Below are positions 19,318 through 59,467 of a stretch of DNA of 64,000 nucleotides, piece by piece. The translations under genes and the position numbers were made by a program. Source of the DNA: Escherichia phage phiWec187; the sequence record LC739536.1; one strand, given 5' to 3'. The notes beneath the pieces were generated by a model that was not told the origin of the DNA, did no database searches, and saw nothing but the letters and a program-made list of their open reading frames with translations. Within the stretch, counting starts at the first letter, position 1, and each line of letters starts with the position of its first letter.

Positions 19318-19563
19318 ATGAGAAAATTTTTAATAGGTATGTTTTGTACATATCCTGATAATAAAGTCAGTTCTACTAAAGTTTGGAATGCTATTGGTAT
19401 GATTGTTATGTCCAGTATGTTTATTTATTTGGGAATTGATAAAGAAATTCCTGAATGGATGGGCTGGGCTTTTGTTTTTATGATCACACCATCCAGACTG
19501 ATGAAGAATTTAATAGATTTACGTTGGGGCAGATCACCTGCCCCTGATAAGGAGGATAACTAA
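19318..19563 (+). CDS. small membrane protein
   Basis: 81 aa with two hydrophobic segments. Confidence 0.3.
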   Translation: MRKFLIGMFCTYPDNKVSSTKVWNAIGMIVMSSMFIYLGIDKEIPEWMGWAFVFMITPSRLMKNLIDLRWGRSPAPDKEDN

Positions 19564-21050
19564 TGGCAGATTATGGTTTAACAGATGCTGGTTTTGTCAT
19601 TCCAACGTTTGATGATATTTTAAATAATTATATGACAGCATTGAAAAACACTTTCGGTGCAGATACAGCTACATCTGAAGATACTGTCTTTGGTCAACTG
19701 TTTCGTATTATTGCATATACAGATTACACCCTTTGGGAAGGTATGCAAGGTGTTTACAATACCCAAACCTTAGATGGTGCAGAAGGTATTTATCTTGATG
19801 AAATTTTCTCTAAAAGGGGTTTTTATCGTAAAGCTGCTTCTGCTGGTAGTGGTTATGCTTATGTTAAATCTAACAATAAGGCAGCTTGGACTTATGAGCT
19901 AAGCACAGATGTTTATTTTAATGCCGATAACGATTTGACATATTATGTCAGTGCACCAACAATGTTGAATGCTAAGATTGGAGCATATACCATTTCTAAA
20001 GCAAACGCAACAGCTTCTGGTGAAACTTCTATTACTTTCTACATTCAAAGTGCTATTGACGGTGGTCTTAACAGTAAAACACTAAGTCCTAGCAATACAA
20101 ACTTTATTTTAGATCTCACGAATTTCATTAAAGCTAACGTATCAACAACAGATCGTGCTTTAGTATGGAATGATGCTAGTAATGTTTACATGGGTTATAA
20201 TCCAGAAGATAATGTTAACCCAATAGGTTTAGTAACACCAGTGAAATTTTACGCATCTATTGCAATAGGTACAAAATGGAGTGAAATTCCAGTTACGTGT
20301 TCAGACGTTGGTTATAATCCAGTAGGTACAGAAAGTATCACAGGTATTTCTTCAACGTTTACAGGCTTTTTAGATACAGGTAACTTCTATCCATTCTCTC
20401 CAGGTACAGATGTTGAAACAGATGCAGAATTCCGTTCTCGTTTCAATGATAATATGGATGAAGCTAATGCTGCTACTCGTGCTGCTATTGTTAAAGCTCT
20501 GCTACTGACAGATGGTGTGACAAAGGTTAAGATTTATGATAACCCTACATTACATGATCAGGAACATGCTCCAGCTATGACATTCCAGACTATTGTGTAT
20601 GGTGGTACAGCAGAAGAAGTTGCACAGGTTATTTATAATACTAAACCTATTAACACCTTAACCTATGGTACAACAGCAATTACTATCGTAACAGAAGATG
20701 GCGGTCAAGAAGTAATTCGTTTTTCTCCTGGTGACAATGCTGAATATTCACTTAAACTGATATATCAAACTGGCAATGGTAGTGTGTTAAGTACAACAGA
20801 AAGAGAAAATATTGTTTCTGCTCTTTCAAACCTACAGGCTTATTTTGAGTTAGGGTCAACAGTAACTAACGATCAGATAAAAGGTGTAATTTATTCTGCA
20901 CTTGCGTTCGGACGCTTGACTTCTCTCCGTGTTTATGTTAAACTTAATACTGAGGATGACAGTAAATATAATGAGGGAGATATCACTCCAGCGTACAATG
21001 TTGTACCATCCTTTGACCTTGATAATATTTCCTACGAGTACGGAGTCTAA
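19563..21050 (+). CDS. baseplate J-like protein
   Basis: 495 aa; N-terminal region typical of baseplate J family as I recall it; followed by a gpI-like gene. Confidence 0.45.
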   Translation: MADYGLTDAGFVIPTFDDILNNYMTALKNTFGADTATSEDTVFGQLFRIIAYTDYTLWEGMQGVYNTQTLDGAEGIYLDEIFSKRGFYRKAASAGSGYAYVKSNNKAAWTYELSTDVYFNADNDLTYYVSAPTMLNAKIGAYTISKANATASGETSITFYIQSAIDGGLNSKTLSPSNTNFILDLTNFIKANVSTTDRALVWNDASNVYMGYNPEDNVNPIGLVTPVKFYASIAIGTKWSEIPVTCSDVGYNPVGTESITGISSTFTGFLDTGNFYPFSPGTDVETDAEFRSRFNDNMDEANAATRAAIVKALLLTDGVTKVKIYDNPTLHDQEHAPAMTFQTIVYGGTAEEVAQVIYNTKPINTLTYGTTAITIVTEDGGQEVIRFSPGDNAEYSLKLIYQTGNGSVLSTTERENIVSALSNLQAYFELGSTVTNDQIKGVIYSALAFGRLTSLRVYVKLNTEDDSKYNEGDITPAYNVVPSFDLDNISYEYGV

Positions 21051-40049: not shown

Positions 40050-40319
40050 CTAAAATGATTCGTTTGTCTCCATAATATATTGCATTTCCAAATCTTCCAT
40101 ATGTTTCTTAAATTGGTAAACAATTTCCGATGGGGAAATATCTATATCAAAAAGTTCTTTTGTACCAGAATAAAACCTAATACCGTCAACAATAAGGCCA
40201 CCATAATAATCCCAATCACTTTCTCGTGAGAAAGGATTAGGTTCTTCATAATAGTAATCTACTTCAACAATAATAGGTTCTTTATTATCTTGTTTATACT
40301 CAAAATCAAAAGTGTTCAT
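40050..40319 (-). CDS. hypothetical protein
   Basis: 89 aa acidic ORF. Confidence 0.25.
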   Translation of the reverse strand: MNTFDFEYKQDNKEPIIVEVDYYYEEPNPFSRESDWDYYGGLIVDGIRFYSGTKELFDIDISPSEIVYQFKKHMEDLEMQYIMETNESF

Positions 40320-41263
40320 TATAAATCCTCGATAAGCAGTCTGCGGGTTTCATTTAAATCATCAATATTGTAGTTATCTCTTACATACTTAGCAAGAGCC
40401 AATCCTTTCTCAATACAAACATCAGGAGATTCGATTAAGTATTCTACAATATCTTTCCACTCTTTAACTGAATCAGCAAAGAAGATTAGATCTTTAAATT
40501 CTTCAGTATAATAGTTCTCTCGTGGTGAACAAACGAGTGGCAAACCTTTAGCACCAGCTTCAAGAATTTTTAAATTACTTTTGGCATTATTAAAATGATT
40601 ATTTACTAACGGAGCTATGGAGATTTGATGACCATCGTATGCTTCCATATAACACTCATAAGGACGAATACCTTCATAAACACAATCTGGTTGAATATCT
40701 TCTTTAATTTGCAACCATTGAGCACTACTTAACTCTTCGTGATCTCTACGAAATCCACATAAAGTTAAATCTTTACCAAAAGCAGGAAGAATTGCTAAAT
40801 CATGTTTATGGGTTTCACTTCCCGCCCAAACCAGTGGGCTTTTAGAATAACGATCTTTAGTAAGAACAAACTGCCCTTCATCAAAAGGTAGTCCGTTAGG
40901 CACAATATGTACATTATCATTGTATTGGCTTAATTCGACCTTTAATGCTGGAGTTGTTGTAGTTACAAGATCGCTTCTTTCAAGGAACCATTTTAGGTCA
41001 TCTCGGATTTGATTTTCAAATAATCCTTCCAGCATATGCCCTTCAGGAATAATTAAAGAATCATCCAGATCCATTACCAATTTAAACCCAAGTTGTTTAA
41101 GAGCCAGGAAACCTGGCTTTCCACGTGTTGGTACTCCATTGAACACAAAAATATTATGCTTAGGATTAATGGTCAGTTTGCGTTTATATGGCAAAATGAT
41201 TCTATGAAAATCACATACACTATACTTTTCATTTCCGCGTGTGTCAAGAATAATATTAGGCAT
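40319..41263 (-). CDS. glycosyltransferase, GT-B-like (paralog 1)
   Basis: 314 aa; C-terminal KILEAGAKGLPLVCSP resembles the GT1/GT4 nucleotide-sugar-binding region; paralogous to 41275..42249. Confidence 0.45.
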   Translation of the reverse strand: MPNIILDTRGNEKYSVCDFHRIILPYKRKLTINPKHNIFVFNGVPTRGKPGFLALKQLGFKLVMDLDDSLIIPEGHMLEGLFENQIRDDLKWFLERSDLVTTTTPALKVELSQYNDNVHIVPNGLPFDEGQFVLTKDRYSKSPLVWAGSETHKHDLAILPAFGKDLTLCGFRRDHEELSSAQWLQIKEDIQPDCVYEGIRPYECYMEAYDGHQISIAPLVNNHFNNAKSNLKILEAGAKGLPLVCSPRENYYTEEFKDLIFFADSVKEWKDIVEYLIESPDVCIEKGLALAKYVRDNYNIDDLNETRRLLIEDL

Positions 41264-41274
41264 ATAACTCCTTG

Positions 41275-42249
41275 TTAAAGACTTTCAATAACTTGACGAC
41301 GCAGTTCATTGGCATCTGCAAGATTATAATTAAGACGAACGTGTTCTGCAAGCATCATACCACGATCTTCTGTGTATCTAGGGTTCCTCATTAGCTTGAC
41401 AACTTCATAATGCCAAGATGCTTTAGAGTCTGCATAGATAACAGCCTTTGCATCTACCGGATTGAAGTACGGCAGCACAGGAGAACAGATAATAGGAAGA
41501 CCCTTTGCACCTGCTTCCAAAATCTTCAAATTGCTTTTACAGTTGTTGAAGTCATTATCTACCAGAGGAGCAATTGCAATACTGTGACCGTCATACACAG
41601 ACATATACTCACCTAAATTTTTAATAGCTGGTTTATACTGTGCATTTGGAATTTTACGTTTTACTTTAACCCACTCCGCAGTAGTTAGATACTGACTATT
41701 ATTTCCAACAGGTGCAGAAGGATACACTTCATACCCTGCAATTGTCAATAGCGTATCATCAAATGTATTAGCTACAAGAGATAAATCAGGTTCATGGCTT
41801 GCTCCTCCCGCCCAAATAATAGGCGTGTCAGAATAACGGTCTTTTGTCAAAGTAAATTGACCTTCGTCGTAAGGTAGTGCGTTTCTAATAACGACAACAT
41901 TACGATTTAAATGACGAATTTTGTAAGCTAGGTATTCTGTTGTTACAGTAACCACATCTGCTAACTTAATCATCTCTACAATAGTCTTTGAGTGATTAGT
42001 AAATACGCCAGCCATATAATGTTCAGGATTAAGCGAATAAAAATCATCTAAATCAACAATAATCTTAACACCTTGTGCCTTCAGGCGTTTAACCTCGTCT
42101 GATCCACGAGAATACACTCTATTAAAAACTAAAACGTCTTTCTTAGGTTTAAACGTATTTCCAGCAAATGGCATTACAATACGATGGTAATCACAACCAC
42201 TGCCTAACTTATTATCACACTTAAGTACAGGAGTATTAGGATTTACCAT
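41275..42249 (-). CDS. glycosyltransferase, GT-B-like (paralog 2); start re-assigned to ATG at 42249
   Basis: shares CDYHRI and IAIAPLVDNDFNNCKSNLKILEAGAKGLPIICSP blocks with paralog 1; AGGAGG RBS 9 nt upstream of ATG 42249. Confidence 0.45.
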   Translation of the reverse strand: MVNPNTPVLKCDNKLGSGCDYHRIVMPFAGNTFKPKKDVLVFNRVYSRGSDEVKRLKAQGVKIIVDLDDFYSLNPEHYMAGVFTNHSKTIVEMIKLADVVTVTTEYLAYKIRHLNRNVVVIRNALPYDEGQFTLTKDRYSDTPIIWAGGASHEPDLSLVANTFDDTLLTIAGYEVYPSAPVGNNSQYLTTAEWVKVKRKIPNAQYKPAIKNLGEYMSVYDGHSIAIAPLVDNDFNNCKSNLKILEAGAKGLPIICSPVLPYFNPVDAKAVIYADSKASWHYEVVKLMRNPRYTEDRGMMLAEHVRLNYNLADANELRRQVIESL

Positions 42250-42922
42250 ATTTTTGAGCCTCCTCATAAGAGATAAAAGTTTTACCATTGCGAAGATCCT
42301 CCAGTGATTGTTTATATTGTTCCCAGTTTACACCAATCCCCTGTTCTTTCTCTTCTTTTGACAGATTTGCAAAAGGTAAAGGATTGTCTCCAAACACATC
42401 GTCAGGATGGATAAACGCCATAATTCGAATAGGACATGGTACGCCGTGAATACCTCGGTTCAAACCTGCAAGTGGAACGCGCTGAATCCACTCTGCATCT
42501 TCATATCCATAACCGTGGGTGTATGAGCGGAAATAGCCAGCTTTCTCAATAACTGCACGGGAATACATACCAAACTGGCACATGCCTAGCTCCCAAATAA
42601 CTACTTCTCCTTCAATACCTTTTACTTTATCTTTAAAGTATTCAGGCATACCAAAGAAATCCCAACCATTTTCCTTCGCCTGTTTTACAAAATATGTTTC
42701 CCAACCTGGAACAACAGGATAACAATCATCATCAAAAATAAACCAGTAGTCATACCCTTCATCATAAAACTTTTTCATCAGTTCATTACGGGCATATGCA
42801 ACACCTTTTCGTTCACGATCATACTGTACAACAAAAGTAGCATTAGGATCAGTTACAAGATAATCTTTAAGAGGACGCTTACCTACAGTAATAACACCAA
42901 CACCAATTTTTGTATTTTCCAA
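42236..42922 (-). CDS. glycosyltransferase family 2-like (GT-A fold)
   Basis: 228 aa; DxD-type acidic motif FIFDDDCY and downstream YGYEDAEWIQR resembling the GT2 ED...R block. Confidence 0.5.
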   Translation of the reverse strand: MENTKIGVGVITVGKRPLKDYLVTDPNATFVVQYDRERKGVAYARNELMKKFYDEGYDYWFIFDDDCYPVVPGWETYFVKQAKENGWDFFGMPEYFKDKVKGIEGEVVIWELGMCQFGMYSRAVIEKAGYFRSYTHGYGYEDAEWIQRVPLAGLNRGIHGVPCPIRIMAFIHPDDVFGDNPLPFANLSKEEKEQGIGVNWEQYKQSLEDLRNGKTFISYEEAQKYGKS

Positions 42923-42931
42923 AATAACTCC

Positions 42932-43495
42932 TTAAATAATTTTATTCATGTCTTGACAATGTAAAAGGTGTGAAACAGCTTTTCTAGGATCATCATTACC
43001 TAAACGGTATGTGTGAAATAAATATAACCCACGTAGTAAACCTAGCCTTTTATTGTTAGCGTGCAATGCTTTAGAGAAAATTATATCAAACTGTATTGAT
43101 CTTTCCTCAAAAGGAATTTCATTCCACAGACTCTTACGAAAGAGAAGAAAGAATCCTGCTAAGATAGCATCTGTAGGTACTTCCTCTATTGAGTTTCCCC
43201 ATTCTAGATGTGCTCTTTTTGCAATCTCAATGTGGTGTAATATATTCGGATCTTCACTTCTTTCATTATTAAATAATTGATATGTTGATCCCAATCTGTT
43301 ACAAGATGCACCAAGAACATCAAAATCAGGATTTGAACGGACAATTGATTCCAGCCAAGCAGGTTGTTCTGGAAGAAGAAACATTGTATCAATGTCTCTT
43401 AGGCAAATCCAACTATCTTCTGGTAAGACACTTATTGTGTCATTGATACCTTTTCCAATATCTCCAGAAAGATAGGGAGTTATGTGAAATATCAT
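42932..43495 (-). CDS. putative glycosyltransferase (GT-A-like, DxD motif)
   Basis: 187 aa; CLRDIDTMF acidic motif; adjacent to three glycosyltransferase genes. Confidence 0.3.
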   Translation of the reverse strand: MIFHITPYLSGDIGKGINDTISVLPEDSWICLRDIDTMFLLPEQPAWLESIVRSNPDFDVLGASCNRLGSTYQLFNNERSEDPNILHHIEIAKRAHLEWGNSIEEVPTDAILAGFFLLFRKSLWNEIPFEERSIQFDIIFSKALHANNKRLGLLRGLYLFHTYRLGNDDPRKAVSHLLHCQDMNKII

Positions 43496-45501: not shown

Positions 45502-46098
45502 TTACTCGAACCAATCGTCGCCAGCGCCAAACGCTTTAACTACATCGTAAATGTCAAGCCCAGCTTTACCCACACCATACGCTTTCAGTTTCCATTCGCT
45601 ATCTTCTCGCACCAGGGAGGCAACGTGGCAAATGGTGTTACCTGCAAGTTCTGGAGCCAAGAAGTCAAAGTCCAGCAGTTCAACATTACGTTCATCATCG
45701 AAGATTTTAAGGAAACCTTCGGTAGCGTGACCAAGGCGTTTCTTACCCGTTTCGTCATCAATAGTAATTACGAATGCAATTTCCTGTGCTTCAGCAGAGA
45801 TATTATCCAGTGTAACATCAATCTGCTCCATCTGTCCTACACCATCACGAACATCTTCACCTGCAAAAGTAGAACGTTCAGGATCAAATTTCTGCGCGTA
45901 GCACACCAGGTGACGAGGAGACAACAGTTCCGGCAGACCAGATGCATTGTGTCGGCAAATCAGAGCACTAACATCCAGATCCAGTTTTTCGTTAGATTTC
46001 CAAGAGAATTCCAGACGAATGCGTTTCAGTGCTGGTGCAATCTTTTTCAGAGAAACTTTTTCGCTAGAACCTTTTTTCAGGGAAATTTTCTGAGTCAT
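45502..46098 (-). CDS. terD: TerD-family stress protein
   Basis: 198 aa; ISLKKGSSEKVSLKK, LDLDVSALIC, EIAFVITIDD, SEWKLKAYGVGKAGL align with E. coli TerD blocks as I recall them. Confidence 0.8.
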   Translation of the reverse strand: MTQKISLKKGSSEKVSLKKIAPALKRIRLEFSWKSNEKLDLDVSALICRHNASGLPELLSPRHLVCYAQKFDPERSTFAGEDVRDGVGQMEQIDVTLDNISAEAQEIAFVITIDDETGKKRLGHATEGFLKIFDDERNVELLDFDFLAPELAGNTICHVASLVREDSEWKLKAYGVGKAGLDIYDVVKAFGAGDDWFE

Positions 46099-46170: not shown

Positions 46171-46965
46171 TTACGCTTTTGCTCCAAATTTTTTAACCCA
46201 CTCACCAAACTCTTCGGATAGCAGTTTATCGTAAAGTTCTTCGTCAGACAAGGACAAATCTGCAATACCGATAAAATCAACATTATCGTATTCTTTTGCC
46301 AAGTCTTTCAGGAATTTAAAGTTTGCATTACCTACACCAACCATAAACCAGTAAACAGGCGTATTGCGGTGTTTGTTCAGTAAGCTACGTACTGCTGAAG
46401 TATCCATGTTCTCCCCGTCAGTTTGGAAGAAAATCATTGCAGGAGTACGATCAACTTGTGCATCAGTATCTACAACCTGTTCTACAACAGTACGTGTTAC
46501 TTCTACAAGTTCTTTTTTACCAGTTAGTTTAGCAAGGAAACCTTTAGCCGGAACTTCTTCATACTCAACGACTTCGCGTGTAATATTTTTCATAGGTACA
46601 CTACCGAAGTATGTATCATAGATCTCTTGCATTACTGGAGCATAAGCAGTACCACCGTTGATGCAAACATTAGACATGCAAGAGCCGACATAATCATCAT
46701 ACACATCAGCCGTTGCAGGAGGCAGTTCAAAAGAAGAACTATTGAAAGCCCACATGTCAATCTGTGCATTATCATCAAACTTCATACCAAACGGCAGTAG
46801 CTTACCTACAAAATCACTGACAGTGCCATCACGATATAGCTCACACATACTACCCGAAATATCTAAGGCGCTACCGACACGAAGAACAACATCGTTAATC
46901 TTTTTCTTACGCAGAGATACAGTAAGAGTCTCTTGACGTTTTTTAAGACTGATTTTATTGGACAT
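46171..46965 (-). CDS. von Willebrand factor A domain protein (TerY-like)
   Basis: 264 aa; MIDAS-like DISGSM motif after a TerD-like ISLKK N-terminus; adjacent to terD. Confidence 0.55.
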   Translation of the reverse strand: MSNKISLKKRQETLTVSLRKKKINDVVLRVGSALDISGSMCELYRDGTVSDFVGKLLPFGMKFDDNAQIDMWAFNSSSFELPPATADVYDDYVGSCMSNVCINGGTAYAPVMQEIYDTYFGSVPMKNITREVVEYEEVPAKGFLAKLTGKKELVEVTRTVVEQVVDTDAQVDRTPAMIFFQTDGENMDTSAVRSLLNKHRNTPVYWFMVGVGNANFKFLKDLAKEYDNVDFIGIADLSLSDEELYDKLLSEEFGEWVKKFGAKA

Positions 46966-47992: not shown

Positions 47993-48225
47993 TACACATT
48001 CTCCTCTTTTACCAAGTCCATCGTTGAACTATCAAAACCATCTTTAGAAGAATAGGTATAGACAGAACGTAGTTCTCGCAGGACAGTGAATACATTAGGA
48101 TCATCTAACCAAGCATCCTGGAGGAGAACATAACGATCTTCATTGTCATACTGAACAGCAATCATAGAACCAGACAGTTTGTAAATTTTAATATTCATAA
48201 TATATTTCTCCTTAAAGTAGACCAC
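47992..48225 (-). CDS. hypothetical small protein
   Basis: 77 aa ORF. Confidence 0.25.
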   Translation of the reverse strand: MVYFKEKYIMNIKIYKLSGSMIAVQYDNEDRYVLLQDAWLDDPNVFTVLRELRSVYTYSSKDGFDSSTMDLVKEENV

Positions 48226-49315
48226 GTTTAACAGTTTGAATCATACCATCTTCAAGAGATTGCACTTCTTGAATGTAATCAATACGCGCAGCACGGGCTT
48301 CAGTGTTGATTCGGTTAGTTTCTTCCAACATTTTAACTAAGTTTTCTTGATCGCGACGTAATGTTTCAATATCCAATACTTGACGATTAGCAAGTTGTGT
48401 AGCTTCAATTTGGTTTTGTGCAGCCAGATCACTACCCATTGCAATAGCAGCATTAAATTCATTCAGCACATTGTTCTGTGTATCGGCTGCTTTCTTCTGG
48501 CGTAGACTTTCAATATACATAGAAAAGTTTGCAGAGTAAGCAGGGATAACATTATTCACAATATTACGGGCTGATCGCATCAAACTTGCAGATACTTTCT
48601 GCATACTTTGTACACGTGGCCCCATCTGAACACACAGTAAACGCAAGGCTTTCAGGTCTGCAATACGAATTTCAAGCAGATCCATAGTATCACGAGTACG
48701 TTGACGCTCTTCTACTTCATTTTCAGGTAGTGTATTAAGGCGAACTTCTTCTTTTTCATAAGTAGCTGTTAGAAGCTCTATATCCCTGTTTAAGCTAAGA
48801 GCATATTTTGCAATAGCCTCTTCTAAACGTTGCAGATATCGTAAAGAATCTTCTTCTTTTTTCAAGTCTGTTTGTAGTGTCTTTACCAAACCTTCAATAC
48901 GATTATTGATGGTGTCAAATTCACCAAACAAATCTTCTTTCATACCTAATACTTTCTTAACCAGTTTACCTAAGCCTTTAGATTGTTTAATAGAGTTAGG
49001 ATCAAGTTGCTTTGCTTGCTTAATAAGTGCAGTTAAACGTTCACTCATTTCATCCCCCTGAGATGAACGCTGGTGTTTAAGCACTTCAGCATTAAGGTTA
49101 CGAAGAGTAAGTCCTGCATCAGCACCAACTTGTTCAATCTCTTCACGAGACATTGGAGGCAGCATTTGTACAGGTCGTGCAACAGCAGGGGCATATACAG
49201 GGCTTGCATCCATAGCACTTGGAGCAAACAAAGACTTACTTTTTTCTGTTGTTGCCGTGAATACACTCATTTCAGACGGTTTGCTTTTTACGGCACTGAT
49301 AAAAGGACTGGACAT
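48212..49315 (-). CDS. TelA-like toxic anion resistance family protein
   Basis: 367 aa, largely coiled-coil, with size and architecture of TelA/KlaA; context with TerD and TerC; no single diagnostic motif. Confidence 0.45.
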   Translation of the reverse strand: MSSPFISAVKSKPSEMSVFTATTEKSKSLFAPSAMDASPVYAPAVARPVQMLPPMSREEIEQVGADAGLTLRNLNAEVLKHQRSSQGDEMSERLTALIKQAKQLDPNSIKQSKGLGKLVKKVLGMKEDLFGEFDTINNRIEGLVKTLQTDLKKEEDSLRYLQRLEEAIAKYALSLNRDIELLTATYEKEEVRLNTLPENEVEERQRTRDTMDLLEIRIADLKALRLLCVQMGPRVQSMQKVSASLMRSARNIVNNVIPAYSANFSMYIESLRQKKAADTQNNVLNEFNAAIAMGSDLAAQNQIEATQLANRQVLDIETLRRDQENLVKMLEETNRINTEARAARIDYIQEVQSLEDGMIQTVKRGLL

Positions 49316-51093: not shown

Positions 51094-52071
51094 TTAAGCA
51101 ACAGCCTGGTCTTCTTTTTCAGGGAAGATTAAACTTGCAATAACACCCAGCCCAAGAGTACCTAACACAATATACATACTGATCGTCGGATCAATGTGTG
51201 CTGGTAGGAAACTCACTTTTGCGTGCAGAGTTTCTGCAAACGGATGATACATCAGTTTTACACCCACAAATACCAGGACTACGATAACTGCTTTCTCCAG
51301 ATGAACCAAATACTTCAGTGCAACACTAAGAACAAAGAACAGAGCACGTAAACCTAAGATAGCACAGAGCATCGAAGAGAACACCAGCAGAGGTTCTTGT
51401 GTCACTGCAATCACTGCTGGAACAGAGTCTACTGCAAAGATTACGTCAACCATTTCCATTACAAACACACAAACCAGAGCCGGAGTTGCTACACGAACAC
51501 CATTTTTGATTGTGAAGAACTTCTCACCATCCATCTGATCAGATACAGGGAACAGCTTACGAACAATGCGAGTAGCCCAGTGTTTAGAGTAATCAACTTC
51601 TGCATCATTATCTCCAGCGAATACCATTTTAGCCGCACAGAAAAGGATGACCGCACCGAAGAAGATATTAACATACCAGCCCAAACTCAACAAGTAAGTG
51701 CCTACTGCTACAAACACACCTCGGAAGACAATCGCACCTGCAATACCCCAAAGTAGAATCTTGTGCTGCAAGTGTGTGCTTTTAATACCAAAACTTGCGA
51801 ATACTGCCACAAATACTACTAAGTTATCTACAGAAAGAGATTTCTCCAACACATACCCACTTAAGAACAAGCTCGCAAAATCAGCACCGTGTTGGAAGTA
51901 TACAAAACCATAGTAGGCTAATGATACCCCAATCCAGAAAATTGACCAGCCAATTGCAGATTTAAATGAAATTTCTTTGTTTTCTCTGTGTCCAAAGAAA
52001 TCAATACAAATCGACAAGACTAAAATACCCACTAAAACAACCACATCAATAATTGGGAAACCCAGTTGCAT
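51094..52071 (-). CDS. terC: TerC-family integral membrane protein
   Basis: 325 aa polytopic membrane protein; YVLEKSLSVDNLVVFVAVF matches the conserved TerC block. Confidence 0.75.
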   Translation of the reverse strand: MQLGFPIIDVVVLVGILVLSICIDFFGHRENKEISFKSAIGWSIFWIGVSLAYYGFVYFQHGADFASLFLSGYVLEKSLSVDNLVVFVAVFASFGIKSTHLQHKILLWGIAGAIVFRGVFVAVGTYLLSLGWYVNIFFGAVILFCAAKMVFAGDNDAEVDYSKHWATRIVRKLFPVSDQMDGEKFFTIKNGVRVATPALVCVFVMEMVDVIFAVDSVPAVIAVTQEPLLVFSSMLCAILGLRALFFVLSVALKYLVHLEKAVIVVLVFVGVKLMYHPFAETLHAKVSFLPAHIDPTISMYIVLGTLGLGVIASLIFPEKEDQAVA

Positions 52072-52148
52072 TCTTTTCTCCTCTTTAATGCGGAGGACAA
52101 TCCTCCGCTCTATGTCTTATACTATAAACTGTTTTTAAAGAAAGTCAA

Positions 52149-52397
52149 CTAGTTCAGTTCTGTAATTTTAAGTTTATCTTCTTTGTTAATGATAGGGAAA
52201 GCTACAGCATCACCTACATCATCAATAAAGCAAATAGCAAGACCACCTTCCACTTTGCTAACCTGACCATTAAAGGCATGATACGGGGCAGGAACTTCAT
52301 CTCCATCTTCAATGAGAATAGCCTCGTAAACCTTGCCGATAGTACAATCACGGGTGTTTATAAATTTTTCAAGCACTTCAACATTTACTTTACGCAT
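52149..52397 (-). CDS. hypothetical small protein
   Basis: 82 aa ORF. Confidence 0.25.
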   Translation of the reverse strand: MRKVNVEVLEKFINTRDCTIGKVYEAILIEDGDEVPAPYHAFNGQVSKVEGGLAICFIDDVGDAVAFPIINKEDKLKITELN

Positions 52398-52411: not shown

Positions 52412-52618
52412 TTATTTGTTAGATTGAAAGATACCACGGAGTACCGCAAGAATGAACGTCACACAGACTACACTCCAAAACGTTACAGGAACATGATGCC
52501 AGTCTAAGCCGATAATGTCAATCATATAATTGTATGCTAAAAGCAGTAGCCAACTAGGGATTAACACAATCAAGAACACAACAATAAAACAACCTAATAC
52601 TGCTAAAACACCTGCCAT
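52412..52618 (-). CDS. small membrane protein
   Basis: 68 aa, two hydrophobic helices. Confidence 0.3.
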   Translation of the reverse strand: MAGVLAVLGCFIVVFLIVLIPSWLLLLAYNYMIDIIGLDWHHVPVTFWSVVCVTFILAVLRGIFQSNK

Positions 52619-52627
52619 ACTTTCTCC

Positions 52628-53344
52628 TTATTTCAGTTTGTAAACAATTACATTTAAACCTTTGTTTACTAGAGTTTCTTCGATCATAAGTTTTACAATA
52701 TTCCAAGAACCTCCAGCCAAACCACAACCAAGCATTGGTAAACCTACAATTTTACCGCCTGAAGATACAACATCGTCTCCCATACTATCTAGCGCATTGT
52801 AGATAGCTTCATAATTCAGGTCACGCTTACCTTCCTCACGACGACTATAACCATATTGTCCATATAAATTATAAATTGTCAAATTGTTTTCTGTATATTT
52901 GGTAAACGTACCTAATTTTTTATAATCACCACGTTTAGTGGCACAATCTGCTTTAAACGCACCAGGCCACTTGCTTTTAATTTTTGGTGCAATACCACTA
53001 CCCATAGTGCAAAAACAGTTACAGCAGTGTGCTATAGCGTCTATATCGCCTCTCTCGGCTGCTGCTAAAAGATCACCGTATACCTCAATGATACCTGCTG
53101 GATAACTTGTTACAATTTCATCTTCCCAGTACATTTTCTCTACACCACCGATCAGTGCAAAGTTTTGTGTAATGCGATCATCAATATAGTTAAGCCCTGA
53201 AACATACACAGCGTATTCATCCTGTGCTGTAATACCTTGCACACGAATTCTTAAGACACCATCTTTATCTGTTGCTACACGCCCAAAATCTTTTTCTGTA
53301 ATATTGGTGATAGGATCTCCGAAAGTCATTACTTTATTAGACAT
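52628..53344 (-). CDS. macro-domain protein (ADP-ribose binding/processing); start re-assigned to ATG at 53344
   Basis: IAHCCNCFCTMGSGIAPKI and C-terminal LGCGLAGG resemble macro-domain blocks; ORF track start lies inside the upstream gene. Confidence 0.5.
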   Translation of the reverse strand: MSNKVMTFGDPITNITEKDFGRVATDKDGVLRIRVQGITAQDEYAVYVSGLNYIDDRITQNFALIGGVEKMYWEDEIVTSYPAGIIEVYGDLLAAAERGDIDAIAHCCNCFCTMGSGIAPKIKSKWPGAFKADCATKRGDYKKLGTFTKYTENNLTIYNLYGQYGYSRREEGKRDLNYEAIYNALDSMGDDVVSSGGKIVGLPMLGCGLAGGSWNIVKLMIEETLVNKGLNVIVYKLK

Positions 53345-54194
53345 AATAATCCCCTTTAACATTAGATTTGTTGATAATGTTGCTTTCAAAAAATTGACGT
53401 AGGAAATCAAAGTTCTCTTTGTATTTTTCAATGTTATTGTAACCTTCTGCAAGGCAACCAAAGAACAGTTGTTCTACATAATACAAAGGAAGTTGTGAAA
53501 GTGCAATTTTAAAATCAACTTCGCTTTGACTCATTAGATACTTAATAGGACGAACCAAACATTTAGCATCAGTTTCTTGCTTAATCATTTTAATAAAAGC
53601 TGCCAGATTATTGATATAGTTGAAGTTAAGTGCAGCTTCGGTATTGGCTTCTGTACCTTCATACTTTGCAAAGTACAGGAAAAACGTATCGTTTTCAACA
53701 CCTTCTTTGTCTAAAATTTCAATAAGTTTTTCTTCGTGTGTTCCTGTAATATTAACATCATCAATGAAAATCAGAGTTTTATTACCCCAGAAATCACGAT
53801 TGATAGAGAAAGTGTCACCATCGATCAAAGCCTTACGATCTTCTTTGCTAAGAAATCCATAATCATTGATATAACTCACTTTACGATGAACGATATCCCA
53901 CTCCACTGCTTTACCTCCTTTGATAGAGATTAGGTAGTTGAGGTGATCTACAAAATGCTCAGATAACACTGTAGCTGCATTTTTCACATAATTATATGGA
54001 GATGGAATAACAACAAAACTTTCATTTACTAGTCGTTCTTCATATTTAGAAAAGAAACTTTCAGCTAGAATGCGTCCCATTCTTTTTGCTGCCTGGTTAC
54101 TGCCAAACTTTAGTTTGGAATAATCTGCAATGTTAAATTTTGCTTCCTTCAGGTTAGTAAAAGTATTAGCAAAATGTTGAATTTGATTACGCAT
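53337..54194 (-). CDS. phosphoribosyltransferase-domain protein (type I PRTase fold)
   Basis: 285 aa; TLIFIDDVNITGTHEE matches the PRPP-binding motif (hydrophobic x4, DD, xxTG) of type I PRTases. Confidence 0.55.
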   Translation of the reverse strand: MRNQIQHFANTFTNLKEAKFNIADYSKLKFGSNQAAKRMGRILAESFFSKYEERLVNESFVVIPSPYNYVKNAATVLSEHFVDHLNYLISIKGGKAVEWDIVHRKVSYINDYGFLSKEDRKALIDGDTFSINRDFWGNKTLIFIDDVNITGTHEEKLIEILDKEGVENDTFFLYFAKYEGTEANTEAALNFNYINNLAAFIKMIKQETDAKCLVRPIKYLMSQSEVDFKIALSQLPLYYVEQLFFGCLAEGYNNIEKYKENFDFLRQFFESNIINKSNVKGDYYV

Positions 54195-54843
54195 TAATAA
54201 GTTCCTCTTTTTTAAGTTTAGCCAACAAGTCTTCTGGATTAATAATATGACAGAACTTCATCCCTATGTCAACAGCTTTTCCATCATAAATCAAACTATC
54301 TCCAACGTGTAAAATCTCCTCTGGTGCGAGATCAAACGTTACCATTTCATCAAAAGAGAGTTTAAAAAACCTAGGATCTGGTTTACACAAGCAAAACTCA
54401 TCAGAAAAATGCATAAAGTCAAATGGTAATTTTGTTAAGCCAGAATATACAGCTAAGAAACTACCTGGTACAAAATTAGTATTGCTCTTAATACTCAAAG
54501 AATAGGTTGAACTTAGCTCTTCCAACTTCTTGCAAAGTTCAGGGTTCAATATTGGAGGATGTTTTATAAACATTGCTAAACAGTCTCTTTTTAACCCATC
54601 CACTTTATCAAGATCAATGTTCAAACGAGTAGAAAGTGTTTCCCAAGCATTCCTAGACGTTCCACAAATGCCTTTTTCTGCTTTTAAATCCAGGAGAGTT
54701 TTTACCTCTTTATATACGGTAGCTGCTTCTGCCTCAGAACAAGAGGCATACTCGGCAATAACCTTGTTGCGTTCTTCTGCATACAAAGGATTAGCAGTAA
54801 TAAGAGTATTCCATACATCAAAAGAAATATGCTTAACAGTCAT
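54187..54843 (-). CDS. HAD-superfamily hydrolase/phosphatase; start re-assigned to ATG at 54843
   Basis: motif I FDVWNTL (DxYGT-type variant) and motif IV VGDSLIYDG; GGAGG RBS 7 nt upstream of ATG 54843. Confidence 0.55.
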   Translation of the reverse strand: MTVKHISFDVWNTLITANPLYAEERNKVIAEYASCSEAEAATVYKEVKTLLDLKAEKGICGTSRNAWETLSTRLNIDLDKVDGLKRDCLAMFIKHPPILNPELCKKLEELSSTYSLSIKSNTNFVPGSFLAVYSGLTKLPFDFMHFSDEFCLCKPDPRFFKLSFDEMVTFDLAPEEILHVGDSLIYDGKAVDIGMKFCHIINPEDLLAKLKKEELINA

Positions 54844-55012
54844 TTTTAATCCTCCGTCCAAAAGAATATCATCTGCTTAATTTTATTGATCTCTTGATGT
54901 AGTAACTTTCCAGCATGTGATTGATCTTTAATATTGACAGCAAGAATTTCAAGCTCCGTTAGTTTTTCCTGTATAGCTTTATATTCATCATCTGTAAGCA
55001 TTTTCTTCCCCT

Positions 55013-55216
55013 TTAGAATGGTAATCTTTGTATGTCACTTATCCCCACACCAAGAAGTCTAGCAATATCCTTATCTAAAAGCAACTCTTTTTGTTCTAAA
55101 ATGTTAATCAGATCCCCTAATACTTCTTTAATGTCACGATCATTTTTAACAACGTGACCACCTGCTGTATCAACTTTATCTTTAAAAACAAAGTAATGAT
55201 CCATAATACCCTCCAT
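55013..55216 (-). CDS. hypothetical small protein
   Basis: 67 aa ORF. Confidence 0.25.
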   Translation of the reverse strand: MEGIMDHYFVFKDKVDTAGGHVVKNDRDIKEVLGDLINILEQKELLLDKDIARLLGVGISDIQRLPF

Positions 55217-55250
55217 ATAAATAAAGGAGGCTTTCGCCTCCTTTTATCAC

Positions 55251-56411
55251 TTAGTAAGAACGACCACCAAACACATACTCTGTGTAGTTTTTACGTTCTT
55301 TGTTTTTAATAACAACTTCAATGTTGTTGCCTTTATCATCGGTGAACACAAAGTGATAACCGTCACCACCCATTGTACGGATGTGTTTTTCATCATACGT
55401 CAGCAAGATACGGTCTACACCCCAGTAGTAGTCACCTTCTTCGTCTTTATCTTCTACGGTAACGACTCCTTCCATTTCAGGAAGATGCTCTTCTCCTGAC
55501 TTATGATCTACAGCTACAACATAACGATTACCGCTAAACAAACCTTGTGCTGTCATACCGTCAATATCTGTATCTGACGAAACATCTCCTGTACGATCTA
55601 CACCGTTAACTTTCAGAAGTTTAACTTCTTTTGCAGCATAGCGGTGTTCAGTAATACTGATACCCATTAATGCAAGTGCATCAGAGAATTTGTCATTAGG
55701 GTAACGGTTAAGTTCTTCTACTAATGACTGAACAATATCAAAGTTCAAGTCCACGGAAAGATTATAAAGCGTTTCAAAATCTGGTAAAAAGGCTTTGTTC
55801 TCCAGATTTTTAGCCAGATAGTCATCCATAGTAGCTTTAGGTAGTTTCTTATAGCTAAAGCTGTAGAAAATACGGCTAGGACGATTACGCAAAAATTCTG
55901 ATACATAACCATCGTTTTTAGTCAATACAAACAGCTTGTCGTAGCCACCTACACCATCCAGCAGGGTAAGCAAGCCATCCTGTGCATCTTTTTCAGCATA
56001 CAGTTTATCAAATTCATCGATCATAATCATCACAGGTTGTGTGATTTTAGACATAAAATTGATAAAGCCTTCGCCATTAAAAGCACTACCGATAGAAATA
56101 GTAGGAATACCCATTTCACGAAGAGCAGAAGACAGCATTTTAGCTTGCAAAGTTTTACCGCTACCCTTCGTACCCTCAAGGAGAACACCTGTGTTTTTAC
56201 CTTTGCGGCTAAGGAACGTCTTGATAATACGTTCTGATTTATCATCAGTATCACCGTATGTTACTGAAGGGACTTCCATATCGTTTTTAGGATACAGGAA
56301 GAACTCACCACTTTGAGTAACACCTACACCAAAAGTTCCTGCTGGAATTTCTTCAATATCTGTACCAGACTTCTGACGCAGGAAGATTTGATTGCCGAAT
56401 ACTGTAAACAT
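55251..56411 (-). CDS. AAA-type ATPase of unknown function
   Basis: 386 aa; Walker A GTKGSGKT and Walker B VMIMIDEFD; GAGGAG RBS. Confidence 0.55.
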   Translation of the reverse strand: MFTVFGNQIFLRQKSGTDIEEIPAGTFGVGVTQSGEFFLYPKNDMEVPSVTYGDTDDKSERIIKTFLSRKGKNTGVLLEGTKGSGKTLQAKMLSSALREMGIPTISIGSAFNGEGFINFMSKITQPVMIMIDEFDKLYAEKDAQDGLLTLLDGVGGYDKLFVLTKNDGYVSEFLRNRPSRIFYSFSYKKLPKATMDDYLAKNLENKAFLPDFETLYNLSVDLNFDIVQSLVEELNRYPNDKFSDALALMGISITEHRYAAKEVKLLKVNGVDRTGDVSSDTDIDGMTAQGLFSGNRYVVAVDHKSGEEHLPEMEGVVTVEDKDEEGDYYWGVDRILLTYDEKHIRTMGGDGYHFVFTDDKGNNIEVVIKNKERKNYTEYVFGGRSY

Positions 56412-56431: not shown

Positions 56432-56902
56432 TTAGTCAGATTCCCAAATGTTGTCTTTCTTAATCCACATTCGTTGATTATCTGAACCTCTATAACGTTT
56501 CGTTGTTGGTTGATTCATATCATACTTACCATCTATCACTATGTCAACCAGTTTTTTAATTTTTTCTGGAATTTCCTCAAAAAGATATCCTGTATATAAG
56601 ACAATATCTTTTTTGTTTCCAAAACAATCTCTTACCTTCTCAAGAACATACTCTACAGTGTCAATGTTCTCTTTGTCAAGAGGTTCACCACCTAAAACTG
56701 TTAATCCTTTAATGAAAGGTCGAGATAAATCTTTCAAGATAAGATCTAATGTTTCAGTAGTGAACTCTTGTCCGTGGTTATACGACCAGGCTTTCTGGTT
56801 AAAGCAGCCACGGCAACCGTGGCTACAACCGCTCACCCACAAAGAGCATCTTACACCGTCACCGTTGAGCATGTCAACAGGTTCATATCCGGCGTAATTC
56901 AA
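56432..56902 (-). CDS. nrdG: anaerobic ribonucleotide reductase activating protein (radical SAM)
   Basis: 156 aa; CSHGCRGC radical-SAM cluster motif; start overlaps the nrdD stop. Confidence 0.8.
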   Translation of the reverse strand: MNYAGYEPVDMLNGDGVRCSLWVSGCSHGCRGCFNQKAWSYNHGQEFTTETLDLILKDLSRPFIKGLTVLGGEPLDKENIDTVEYVLEKVRDCFGNKKDIVLYTGYLFEEIPEKIKKLVDIVIDGKYDMNQPTTKRYRGSDNQRMWIKKDNIWESD

Positions 56903-57840
56903 AAATGTTTCTCCCTTTCTAGTACCTCTTGCATTTTACCTTTATTATAGGGGCGAGAGTTAGGGGCAGAAAGGTATCCTGACACTCTTCTGATCACAGA
57001 TATGGATTCTTCTTCATGATTGCCACAACTTGGACACTCGAAGCCTTTAGCCGTTGCTTTAAATTCACCATGAAAACCACATTTGAAACACTGATCTACA
57101 GGTTGGTTCACACCAAAATAAGGAATTTTGTTGTAGGCATAATCTACAAGAGTTTCCAGTGCTTGCAAGTTATTTTTAAGGTTTGGTGTTTCTACATAAC
57201 CTATGTTCCCACCATTACTGATTTGTGCAAAACCTTCCTCATAATCCCACTTTTGGAACGGGGTAGTGTGCATCCATACAGGTTGATGGAAAGAGTTTGT
57301 CAAGTAGTCACGATCAATAGAACCAGGATAGCGATCATTTAATGCTTTGGCAAATTTATAGCACAAGGATTCTGCTGGTGTTCCATACAAACTAAAAGCT
57401 AAACCAGAACGTTCTTTAAATGTGCCACAGATATCCTTCATATATTGAAGGATGTTTTTACCCATTGCTTTTGTATTGGTGTTACCTGGGTATAAAATCT
57501 CCATAGCTTCTGCTAAACCTACATAACCGATACTAATAGAGGCATAACCACCTTCGAATAGTTTACCAATCTCTTCATTAGCTTCTAGTCGAGCTAAAGC
57601 CCCTTCCATAAACAATGTAGGGTTTTGAGATGCTTTGGTATGTCTAATACGGTTAACACGTAGCATATGTGCCTTATACGCCATCTCCATATGTTGTTCC
57701 AACAGTTCAGTAAATAAGATGCCCTTTTCACGGGACTCTGCTGCAATGATAGGTAAGTTTAAAGAAACCACGCCTAAGTTGAAACGACCATCATATTTTT
57801 CACCTTGCTCTGTTGCGTAGTATGACAAGAAACTTCTACA
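56899..57840 (-). CDS. nrdD: anaerobic ribonucleoside-triphosphate reductase, exon 2
   Basis: CRSFLSYY...DGRFNLGVVSLNLP aligns with my recollection of E. coli NrdD; C-terminal CPSCG zinc site and RVSGYL glycyl-radical motif; proposed exon start at the Cys codon 57838-57840. Confidence 0.75.
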   Translation of the reverse strand, partial: CRSFLSYYATEQGEKYDGRFNLGVVSLNLPIIAAESREKGILFTELLEQHMEMAYKAHMLRVNRIRHTKASQNPTLFMEGALARLEANEEIGKLFEGGYASISIGYVGLAEAMEILYPGNTNTKAMGKNILQYMKDICGTFKERSGLAFSLYGTPAESLCYKFAKALNDRYPGSIDRDYLTNSFHQPVWMHTTPFQKWDYEEGFAQISNGGNIGYVETPNLKNNLQALETLVDYAYNKIPYFGVNQPVDQCFKCGFHGEFKATAKGFECPSCGNHEEESISVIRRVSGYLSAPNSRPYNKGKMQEVLEREKHF

Positions 57841-58609
57841 CATTATGTTCAAAGTGGCTCGCAAGGCCACTCCCGCACCATTACGTGCTGCTGCATGTCA
57901 CCATGCAGATCAGACTATATCTTCATGCTTAAAGCATGTCTACCATTTGGGGTGTCATAGGCTTACACCCTACGCTGCTACATTCATCACAGCTAGTCGT
58001 TAGGCATTTCGTAACAGAACTCATAATCATAATTATTTGGTGCTCCTCGCTTTAAGATTGCAGATATTCTTTTTCTGTCCAACCCTAAAGCGTCAGCACA
58101 ACATCTCAGACTTTTAAAGTAAAAAACTTCACCGGTAGCCTTATGAGTAGCTTTTACACTGTGACACCTTGTGTAGAAAGCATAACAGTTATTATCGTAA
58201 CCCTCTTGCGTGTTGTCTGGACAAGATCCCCACTCAAGATTGTATACACTATTGTCTTTCCTATTGTCACCTTTATGCTTCACATAAGGTAAATTGTCTG
58301 GATTGGGTAAAAACGCTTCAGCTACAAGTCTGTGCACCCGAAAGCAAACAGTTTTCTTGTTTTTACGTATTCTGACAAGTTGGTATCCTGTGTTTATTTC
58401 TTCCCACGAGCGAAGGATTCTTTCATCCTTATACCTGGTACAATAAACATTTCCAAGCTCGTCAATTTCATACCCTTCAAAATCACGAATTTGTTTTCTC
58501 ATATCAGTACCCCCTTCTTCTGTGTTGGGAGTTCTGTTACGTTTAGCACGGGATTGTCTCGTTGAGAGTTCCCCCGTTTAGGCAGATTTTACATGAGCAG
58601 TTATAGTTT
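57841..58609 (-). mobile_element. group-I-intron-like intervening sequence in nrdD carrying an HNH homing endonuclease ORF
   Basis: nrdD frame broken between ...VTSMG and CRSFL...; exon 1 ends in U (GGT) and the intervening sequence ends in G, as in group I introns; no RBS or ATG precedes exon 2. Confidence 0.55.
57993..58502 (-). CDS. HNH homing endonuclease (intron-encoded)
   Basis: 169 aa; ELGNVYC...GYQLVRIR...VHRLVAEAFLPNP...NLEW resembles the HNH_3/NUMOD pattern of phage homing endonucleases. Confidence 0.7.
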   Translation of the reverse strand: MRKQIRDFEGYEIDELGNVYCTRYKDERILRSWEEINTGYQLVRIRKNKKTVCFRVHRLVAEAFLPNPDNLPYVKHKGDNRKDNSVYNLEWGSCPDNTQEGYDNNCYAFYTRCHSVKATHKATGEVFYFKSLRCCADALGLDRKRISAILKRGAPNNYDYEFCYEMPND

Positions 58610-59467
58610 ACCCATGCTTGTGACGCGACCATCTGAAGATCCTGTAACTTCTTTGTTTAAAGGTACAGAGATAAAATCAGGATAAATGCGTTCAGCACAA
58701 CACTCCATTGCCAGTTGCTTCAAATCATAGTTTGGATCGCCAGCTTTCATGTTAACACCATCTTCCAAGAAGAAGATAACTTTAGGAAACACAGGAGTTA
58801 CCCTATCTTTTCCTAATCCTTGTTTGTGCACCATTAGGTAGTTTTTAGTGATCATTCTACCAAAAGCAGAGGTATCCAAGCCTAAACTAATTGTTATAAA
58901 AGGTGACTGACCATTTACACTCATTAGGGTGTTCACCTGGTAGATTAAAGTTTGCATTGCATCATAAACCTGTTTATCTACCATACGCATAGCAATATCA
59001 TAATCGCCAACATCGGCGTATATTTTATTAAAACTTGCTTTAACGTATTGACTAAGCCCAGTATCAATATGTGCACAAGTTTGTCCACCATATTGGCTAG
59101 AAGCTACTGCTTGAATAATTTGAGTTAGGACAGTAGTTGCTACACCGATAGATTTTGGTTTTTCAATATGTGCATTACCAATACGGAAACCGTTCTCAAG
59201 CATATCTTGGTAATTTACCAGGCAACAATTAGTTAGAGGTGAGAGTAAATAATCTAAATCGTGAATGTGACCATACCCACTTTTATGCCATTCTGCCAGA
59301 TCTTCCGGTAAAATATGGGTCATTGCCATGTGCTTGCTTAGGATACCTGCTAGTAAGTCTCGGTGAGTATTAACAATCATTGCAGGTTTGTTTGCATTTT
59401 CACGAGTAAATTCTTCGGATGTTTGTTCGAGGAATCCGATTACATCCTCATATAGTTTTTGGGTCAT
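58610..59467 (-). CDS. nrdD: anaerobic ribonucleoside-triphosphate reductase, exon 1
   Basis: N-terminal 286 aa of NrdD; track ORF runs two codons further to a stop inside the proposed intron. Confidence 0.75.

Follow-up and report, generated by a model that had tools for sequence, protein, structure and literature searches.

The window analysed here, by which we mean the whole stretch of 64,000 nucleotides from Escherichia phage phiWec187 (sequence record LC739536.1), contains three consecutive genes for a HAD-fold hydrolase, a phosphoribosyltransferase (PRTase) of the PRTase_3 family and a macrodomain protein. Overall, we think it probable that this trio belongs to one co-directional unit holding two functionally separate elements: a HAD-PRTase_3 pair (hereafter the dyad) linked to Ter genes, and a macrodomain of the AdfM/Tk.4 type directed against DarT2. 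Direct observations underlie this reading, namely the folds, the conservation of the active sites, the adjacency and fusion of HAD and PRTase, the linkage to Ter genes and the homology to characterized enzymes. Both elements belong to kinds that have already been described (the dyad computationally, the macrodomain experimentally), and GenBank records of relatives already label the trio as macrodomain, phosphoribosyltransferase and HAD. New here are the quantitative support for the coupling of HAD and PRTase_3, fusions included, and the detail of an invariant tryptophan at the acid/base position of the HAD protein.

Loci holding the dyad were taken from GenBank phages, IMG/VR, metagenomes, plasmids and GTDB genomes (41 loci, with flanks of 10 kb on either side). 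They span many phage lineages, Rhizobiaceae replicons and Bacteroidota, and at every one of them (41/41) the PRTase is directly preceded, on its own strand, by the HAD open reading frame (ORF). Fusions were surveyed among the best 150 representatives of the PRTase_3 family, 19 of which exceed 400 residues. Thirteen of these long proteins are HAD::PRTase_3 fusions (10 recognized by Pfam and three by an N-terminal DxWxT motif), one more has the matching size and layout without HAD evidence, and five consist of tandem PRTase repeats. The fusion P0256 carries an additional N-terminal PRTase copy, giving the order PRTase-HAD-PRTase_3. A macro domain is absent from all 19 long proteins among these best 150 representatives. 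Adjacency at all 41 loci, together with at least 13 fusion proteins, identifies HAD and PRTase_3 as an obligate pair and as the real unit of the locus.

The PRTase gene (53337..54194, minus strand; 285 amino acids) encodes a type I phosphoribosyltransferase for which PRTase_3, described as 'ComF-like', is the sole Pfam match (PF15610; expectation value (E) 1.1e-41, 143.5 bits against a cutoff of 28.7). In the predicted structure (predicted local distance difference test (pLDDT) of 89) the core matches the type I enzymes HGPRT, PyrR and ComF, with UPRT and a ppGpp-bound PRTase-fold protein also among the structural neighbours, and a family-specific helical domain follows this core at the C-terminus. 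The loop for phosphoribosyl pyrophosphate (PRPP) reads LIFIDDVNITGTHE with D145, D146, T150, G151 and H153 invariant, and about 60 further positions are invariant as well across homologues that are 44-81% identical. Such homologues are rare, as a set of 1.84 billion proteins contains 816 representatives of them at 50% clustering, and our literature search found no paper naming PF15610 or PRTase_3. Two or three tandem PRTase_3 domains per polypeptide are seen in the metagenomic proteins P0272, P0287, P0316, P0336 and P0366.

For the HAD gene (54187..54843, minus strand; 218 amino acids) the assignment comes from Pfam, PHROG, profile and motif evidence. The match to Pfam Hydrolase (E 1.7e-5, 25.8 bits) falls just under the cutoff of 26.4, the protein matches PHROG 14393 at E 7.5e-120, and the family profile finds PDB 2om6 at E 5e-23. 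Motif I reads FDVWNTL with an invariant nucleophile (D9), and motifs II (S120-N121), III (K154-P155) and IV (G181-D182 ... D187) are likewise invariant. In canonical HAD phosphatases the aspartate two positions after the nucleophile (Asp+2, as in the DxDxT motif) serves as general acid/base. Here that position holds a tryptophan instead (W11 in 18/18 aligned homologues and in eight fused proteins), and PDB 2om6 has FDVWNTL too, with Trp at Asp+2. As Trp occupies the acid/base position, the label 'phosphatase' is an assumption and not a finding, and the invariance of this residue is a caution against presuming a simple phosphatase.

Downstream of the dyad, on the same (minus) strand and all within 9 kb of it (45.5-52.1 kb), we find genes for a TerC/Alx-family membrane protein (51094..52071; PF03741 E 1e-38, TIGR03718 322.8 bits, above cutoff), a TelA-like protein (48212..49315; PF05816 E 5e-34), a vWA domain protein of the TerF C-terminal type (46171..46965; PF10138 E 1e-38) and a TerD-domain protein (45502..46098; PF02342 E 5e-28). 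Similar surroundings are met elsewhere: outside the Stephanstirmvirinae, Ter genes stand around the dyad on the same strand in 7/15 phage lineages, and loci L003, L027 and L032 show the arrangement TelA-vWA-...-TerC-...-HAD-PRT-TerD. Among Bacteroidota, Ter-linked dyads occur at three loci (a Hymenobacter plasmid, L021 and L022); on the plasmid the dyad adjoins three TerD genes, two vWA genes, a PP2C phosphatase, a kinase and a DUF475 protein. The link to Ter genes is thus strong and frequent, though not obligatory, since eight phage lineages and all Rhizobiaceae dyads have no Ter gene within 10 kb.

A biosynthetic module of Ter systems consisting of PRTase plus HAD was reportedly predicted by Anantharaman, Iyer and Aravind in 2012. 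Iyer et al. (2021) regard PRTases and HAD phosphoesterases as the arm of Ter systems for the biosynthesis of nucleoside or nucleotide derivatives, find this arm in jumbo 'and certain other related smaller tailed phages', and suggest that Ter functions when a phage competes with superinfecting ones (PMC7824862). Further literature reports also describe Ter clusters in virulent phages. One of the Ter-bearing metagenomic phages, L003, also encodes a protein with an Acb2/Tad1 hairpin domain (19368-19592; anti-CBASS/anti-Thoeris sponge family) at about 9 kb from its dyad.

The macrodomain protein (52628..53344, minus strand; 238 amino acids) exceeds the cutoff of Pfam Macro PF01661 (E 2e-7), and its residues from about 85 to 238 are modelled confidently as a macro fold (pLDDT above 90). 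Foldseek retrieves TARG1 (template modelling score (TM) 0.89, E 1e-12), Bt_1257, DarG and SCO6735, and the profile matches include Bt_1257 (E 1e-22), SCO6735 (E 2e-19), TARG1 and yeast Poa1p (E 2e-11). Neither catalytic residue of TARG1 is present (K84 corresponds to Q163 and D125 to A210). All 27 homologues compared keep Q163 and N109, and the loop after the Gln is six residues longer than in TARG1, with no gap there against Bt_1257. Judged by its residues, the protein belongs to the SCO6735/Bt_1257 subclass of TARG1/DarG-like macrodomains, given the Gln in place of K84, the invariant Asn109 and the longer loop. This subclass strips DarT-installed ADP-ribose from DNA thymidine, faster than DarG, and requires the Gln and the Asn (Q85 and N27) to do so (PMC9411070). 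T4 Tk.4 shares 30% identity with the macrodomain of the window (E 9e-18) and has the Gln as well (NLYTQF); this protein is AdfM, whose requirement against DarTG2 emerged from a transposon screen and from a clean knockout (bioRxiv 10.1101/2025.11.20.689424). A PhiKZ macrodomain, likewise named AdfM, performs DNA de-ADP-ribosylation in vitro (PMC13309987). With the PADLOC defence models, the macro domain is the sole match, as DarG-like. An identity as DarG antitoxin itself was rejected: NCBIfam NF048014 scores 48.9 bits against a cutoff of 250 and is covered at profile positions 4-147 of 338 only, the C-terminal DarT-binding domain is missing, and no DarT gene is adjacent.

Its distribution sets the macrodomain apart from the dyad. 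A homologue adjoins the dyad only in the Stephanstirmvirinae (phi92-like, phAPEC8-like and Klebsiella-type phages), in two other phages it lies at 7-8 kb from it, and within the long family proteins surveyed it is never fused to the dyad proteins. About 2,990 phage records contain the family, compared with 156 that contain the PRTase, and its company is diverse: one (jumbo) phage has it near Nampt, Nudix and SIR2 genes, in L044 its neighbour is an RNA ligase gene, and another phage places it among sugar-nucleotide genes. The macrodomain is a separate element, a widespread phage gene that is a lineage-specific neighbour of the dyad. Residues 1-85 form a lineage-specific N-terminal extension (pLDDT 35-59 in the model), whose coding part (53090-53344, minus strand) shows weak similarity (E 0.02) to a free-standing ORF of 193-215 amino acids (L025 9424-10068, L026 4009-4587) located between the PRTase and macro genes in the Klebsiella-type relatives. 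This suggests that the extension arose by fusion with an upstream ORF (or reflects a truncation event).

The window derives from a Justusliebigvirus, a phi92-like myovirus of E. coli, and more than 50 such phages match the 5.5 kb around the trio at 98-99% identity; for the window, identity to phi92-like phages is about 98%. Accordingly named after phi92, the trio members are the counterparts of gp187 (HAD), gp186 (PRTase) and gp185 (macrodomain). All three ORFs were confirmed on the minus strand, which holds every gene in the trio's half of the window. The longest form of the HAD ORF (54187-54861) has a TTG start; more likely, translation begins at the ATG at 54843, which lies 2 bases past the stop of a 51-codon upstream gene and has GGAGGA just 5' of it. 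Both junctions within the trio (HAD/PRTase and PRTase/macro) are 8-nucleotide overlaps of the form ATGnnTAA: the PRTase ATG and the HAD stop share ATGCGTAA, preceded by AAGAGGAA, and the macro ATG at 53344 and the PRTase stop share ATGTCTAA, preceded by AAGGGGA. These junctions are classic translational coupling. A macro ORF starting at 53461 (its longest form) was discarded as an artefact of an upstream TTG. An earlier note on this DNA, made from the letters and their translations, had proposed three translationally coupled genes, which the overlapping start and stop codons bear out. The macro domain and PRTase that it named are confirmed by profile (PF01661, PF15610) and by structure comparison; of its HAD phosphatase, the fold stands (profile, nucleophile, motifs II-IV) and the activity is left as an unproven label, with Trp at Asp+2.

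Likely, the transcription unit reads gp189-gp188-HAD-PRTase-macro-gp184-gp183 and continues straight into terC; this extent is based on a terminator-like hairpin upstream (55244-55223) and on a promoter-like site with hairpin before terC (52148-52090). The upstream hairpin (55223..55244, minus strand) has a 9-bp stem with five GC pairs and a T-rich tail, stands 3' of the upstream AAA-ATPase gene and is likely the 5' boundary of the unit; phage Paula has an annotated terminator at the corresponding site. The unit opens with a small gp189-like gene (55013..55204; about 63 amino acids; phrog_17780) having GGAGG before its second ATG, with homologues limited to the Stephanstirmvirinae among the examined loci, followed by a gp188-like gene (54846..55001; 51 amino acids; ORF and PHROG match). 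After the trio come a gp184-like small hydrophobic protein (52412..52618; 68 amino acids; phrog_16065) and a gp183-like small gene, the last before terC (52149..52397; 82 amino acids; phrog_17459), all on the minus strand.

In the terC leader (52090..52148, minus strand) a sequence scan finds a sigma-70-like promoter, TTGACT-N16-TATAGT, and then the hairpin GCGGAGGA/TCCTCCGC, a perfect and GC-rich stem of 8 bp. The promoter scan gave 24 sites against 18.2 ± 3.9 in shuffled sequence, which is no excess, and for this reason the terC-proximal promoter counts as a lead only. Rfam has zero matches anywhere in the window, including yybP-ykoY at the terC leader, and a riboswitch in the leader was rejected on this ground; the matching NCBIfam models, for their part, name bacterial Alx/TerC genes 'R_switched'. 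No tRNAs were found in the window.

Substrates, product, phosphatase step and biological role are predicted, and we picture them as follows. The dyad would provide the biosynthesis for a Ter system that the phage carries. PRTase_3 would most likely move phosphoribose from PRPP onto a base-like acceptor, and the HAD protein would process the product, conventionally by removal of the 5'-phosphate. The resulting nucleoside-like small molecule might act at the membrane in concert with TerD, TelA, vWA and TerC, and could serve to exclude superinfecting phages or to condition the host envelope and metal balance. Independently, the macrodomain would be a counter-defence gene that clears the ADP-ribose placed by host DarT2 on thymidine in phage DNA.

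A number of points weigh against this scenario. Ter genes are missing within 10 kb of the dyad in 8/15 of the other phage lineages and at all Rhizobiaceae loci. On enterobacterial ter plasmids no homologue of the phage dyad is detectable: a tblastn search with PRTase and HAD against 72,556 plasmids matched Rhizobiaceae and one Hymenobacter only. The lack of Asp+2 in all members of the HAD family means that simple 5'-dephosphorylation is not assured, and both acceptor and product of the dyad are predictions. On the side of the macrodomain, the activity of the phi92 protein is predicted for a polypeptide with an added N-terminal extension. Furthermore, its start overlaps the PRTase stop and the synteny is kept across three Stephanstirmvirinae genera, which makes a functional tie to the dyad possible. 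By the same plasmid search, a recent capture of the dyad from the enterobacterial ter island was rejected, as neither protein finds an enterobacterial plasmid homologue.

The functional tie was central to the earlier note, which took the trio as a possible unit working on ADP-ribose or NAD-related molecules. Such a pathway would rebuild NAD or destroy ADP-ribose-derived immune signals, against Thoeris, DSR or NAD-depleting defence. Translational coupling of the trio, its conserved order in three Stephanstirmvirinae genera and the jumbo phage with a macro homologue near Nampt, Nudix and SIR2 speak for it, yet we hold it to be highly improbable. The PRTase belongs to type I and is ComF-like, unlike the type II enzymes of NAD salvage; the operon has no NMNAT, Nampt, Adps or Namat gene, and none of the nine neighbouring proteins scanned contains a NAPRTase, NMNAT or PRPP-synthetase domain. 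Most dyad lineages and all bacterial loci have no macro gene within 10 kb, the macro domain is fused in 0/19 long family proteins against 13/19 for HAD, and the macro family occurs in unrelated contexts elsewhere, in far more phage records than the PRTase. A single NAD/ADP-ribose pathway was rejected on the PRTase type, the lack of the macro gene at most dyad loci and the absence of macro fusions; with a ComF-like PRTase and a macro neighbour in one phage subfamily only, the proposed common unit finds no support. The counter-defence suggested along with it is plausible for the macrodomain, with another opponent: as the relatives of this protein clear ADP-ribose from DarT-modified thymidine, the target points to DarTG2 and not to Thoeris, DSR or NAD depletion. 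The note's alternative, synthesis of a modified nucleotide, comes near to the nucleoside-like metabolite that had already been predicted for the dyad.

Other readings concern one element at a time. The macrodomain could act on another substrate, such as ADP-ribose-1''-phosphate from RNA repair, or RNA or protein ADP-ribosylated by other host toxins, as might be argued from the label 'phosphatase' that the family bears in PHROG and GenBank, the similarity to Poa1p (E 2e-11) and the RNA ligase gene adjoining the L044 homologue. We consider this rather unlikely: the nearer relatives Bt_1257, SCO6735 and TARG1 are glycohydrolases, the hallmarks of the subclass fit the thymidine-ADP-ribose hydrolase SCO6735, and genetics of the T4 homologue show an anti-DarTG2 phenotype. 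For the dyad, a service to phage nucleotide metabolism, either by base salvage for DNA synthesis or by making a modified nucleotide with which DNA or RNA is hypermodified, would agree with the HGPRT-, PyrR- and UPRT-like fold, with its position among nucleotide-metabolism genes (e.g. nrdD and nrdG) and with glycosyltransferase-like genes 10 kb off, one of which has a weak TET-associated glycosyltransferase match. However, an obligatory partner that removes phosphate would reverse salvage, and the dyad travels without kinase or polymerase-linked genes. It occurs also on Rhizobium plasmids and, in Bacteroidota, beside Ter, kinase and phosphatase signalling genes, and its recurrent tight clustering with TerD, TerC, TelA and vWA would be left unexplained; we therefore give this reading little credence.

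It is equally doubtful that PRTase_3 is a sensor or regulator binding PRPP or nucleotides (as PurR, PyrR or ComF), which together with a Trp-HAD that is no phosphatase would serve the Ter complex by sensing metabolites or alarmones. The structural neighbours PyrR, ComF and the ppGpp-bound PRTase-fold protein, the missing Asp+2 and the existence of tandem PRTase_3 repeats are compatible with such a role, whereas the invariance of the PRPP loop DDxxTGxH and of many charged residues at 44-81% identity is typical of an active enzyme, and the remaining catalytic motifs of the HAD protein are all kept. Finally, it is conceivable, though we rate it as very unlikely, that the Trp-HAD is no phosphatase and carries out a new two-step ribosyl chemistry with PRTase_3, its Asp attacking carbon as in dehalogenase-type HADs, and that the product controls the Ter membrane complex or disrupts host immunity based on ADP-ribosylation. 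If true, this chemistry could also explain why a DNA de-ADP-ribosylating macrodomain is found in the same coupled operon.

Comparison with known systems places the favoured two-element reading in context. In systems such as PDB 7shg ('ribofuranosyl transferase') and C-nucleoside antibiotic pathways, a PRPP-dependent ribofuranosyl transfer is followed by dephosphorylation by a HAD enzyme. The dyad resembles these systems in phosphoribosyl transfer from PRPP and a dedicated HAD, with ribosylation as net result, and the HAD domain of 7shg is a weak profile match (E 7e-5); in contrast, their transferase has a different fold and their HADs are canonical phosphatases. With the Ter biosynthetic module (Iyer et al. 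2021, PMC7824862) the locus shares a PRTase_3-family enzyme, an adjacent HAD, a cluster of TerD, TerC, TelA and vWA-TerF and a virulent phage as carrier, but it is minimal, the window having no ATP-grasp enzyme, TIM-barrel lyase, TerB or TerY-kinase/phosphatase. The PRTase and HAD proteins of enterobacterial ter plasmids differ in having no detectable homology to the phage dyad.

The macrodomain and T4 Tk.4/AdfM are both phage TARG1/DarG-like macrodomains of about 150 residues with the NLY-x-Q motif in common (30% identity), whereas the phi92-type protein has some 85 extra N-terminal residues, probably through fusion with an upstream ORF. PhiKZ AdfM (PMC13309987) differs from both in retaining the DarG-type Lys (K78) where the phi92-type protein and Tk.4 have Gln. 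SCO6735 and Bt_1257 (PMC9411070; PDB 5e3b, 2fg1) agree with the phi92-type protein in the Gln at the position of TARG1 K84 and DarG K80, in the conserved Asn and in a longer, mobile Arg/Lys-rich loop, and Bt_1257 also in an identical phosphate loop (GCGLAGG). These two are cellular proteins, unlike the phi92-type macrodomain, which is phage-encoded and whose activity is predicted.

Some neighbouring features were recorded as well. Directly upstream of the operon lies a gene for an AAA+ ATPase (55251-56411, minus strand; PHROG 2376, elsewhere 'ATPase or Zn metalloprotease'), which together with the nearby vWA-TerF protein is reminiscent of MoxR-vWA pairs. The class III ribonucleotide reductase gene nrdD (56899-59467, minus strand) is interrupted by an HNH/NUMOD homing-endonuclease ORF (57993-58502), which separates its N-terminal half (58601-59467) from its C-terminal half (56899-57870); in PaulScherrer and Paula the gene is unbroken. 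A run of glycosyltransferase-like genes (40319-43495, minus strand) includes an ORF (42236-42922) with a sub-threshold match to TET-associated glycosyltransferase (E 6.8e-5); the run might serve DNA or surface-glycan modification. The Campylobacter phage A145/B15 records (GenBank MG065645.1, MG065650.1) are 100% or 65% identical here to E. coli phi92-like/phAPEC8-like phages, and their host labels look doubtful.

Ter systems are linked to tellurite, colicin and phage resistance, yet their mechanism is obscure, and the product of the PRTase/HAD arm has been an open question since the prediction of 2012. In its phage form the dyad is a compact gene pair, fused into a single gene elsewhere, with its Ter partners adjoining, in a cultivable E. 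coli phage, and is thereby a convenient system for the identification of the metabolite. As for the macrodomain, phi92-like and phAPEC8-like phages join the phages that are likely armed against DarTG2, which bears on the prediction of host range for therapeutic phages.

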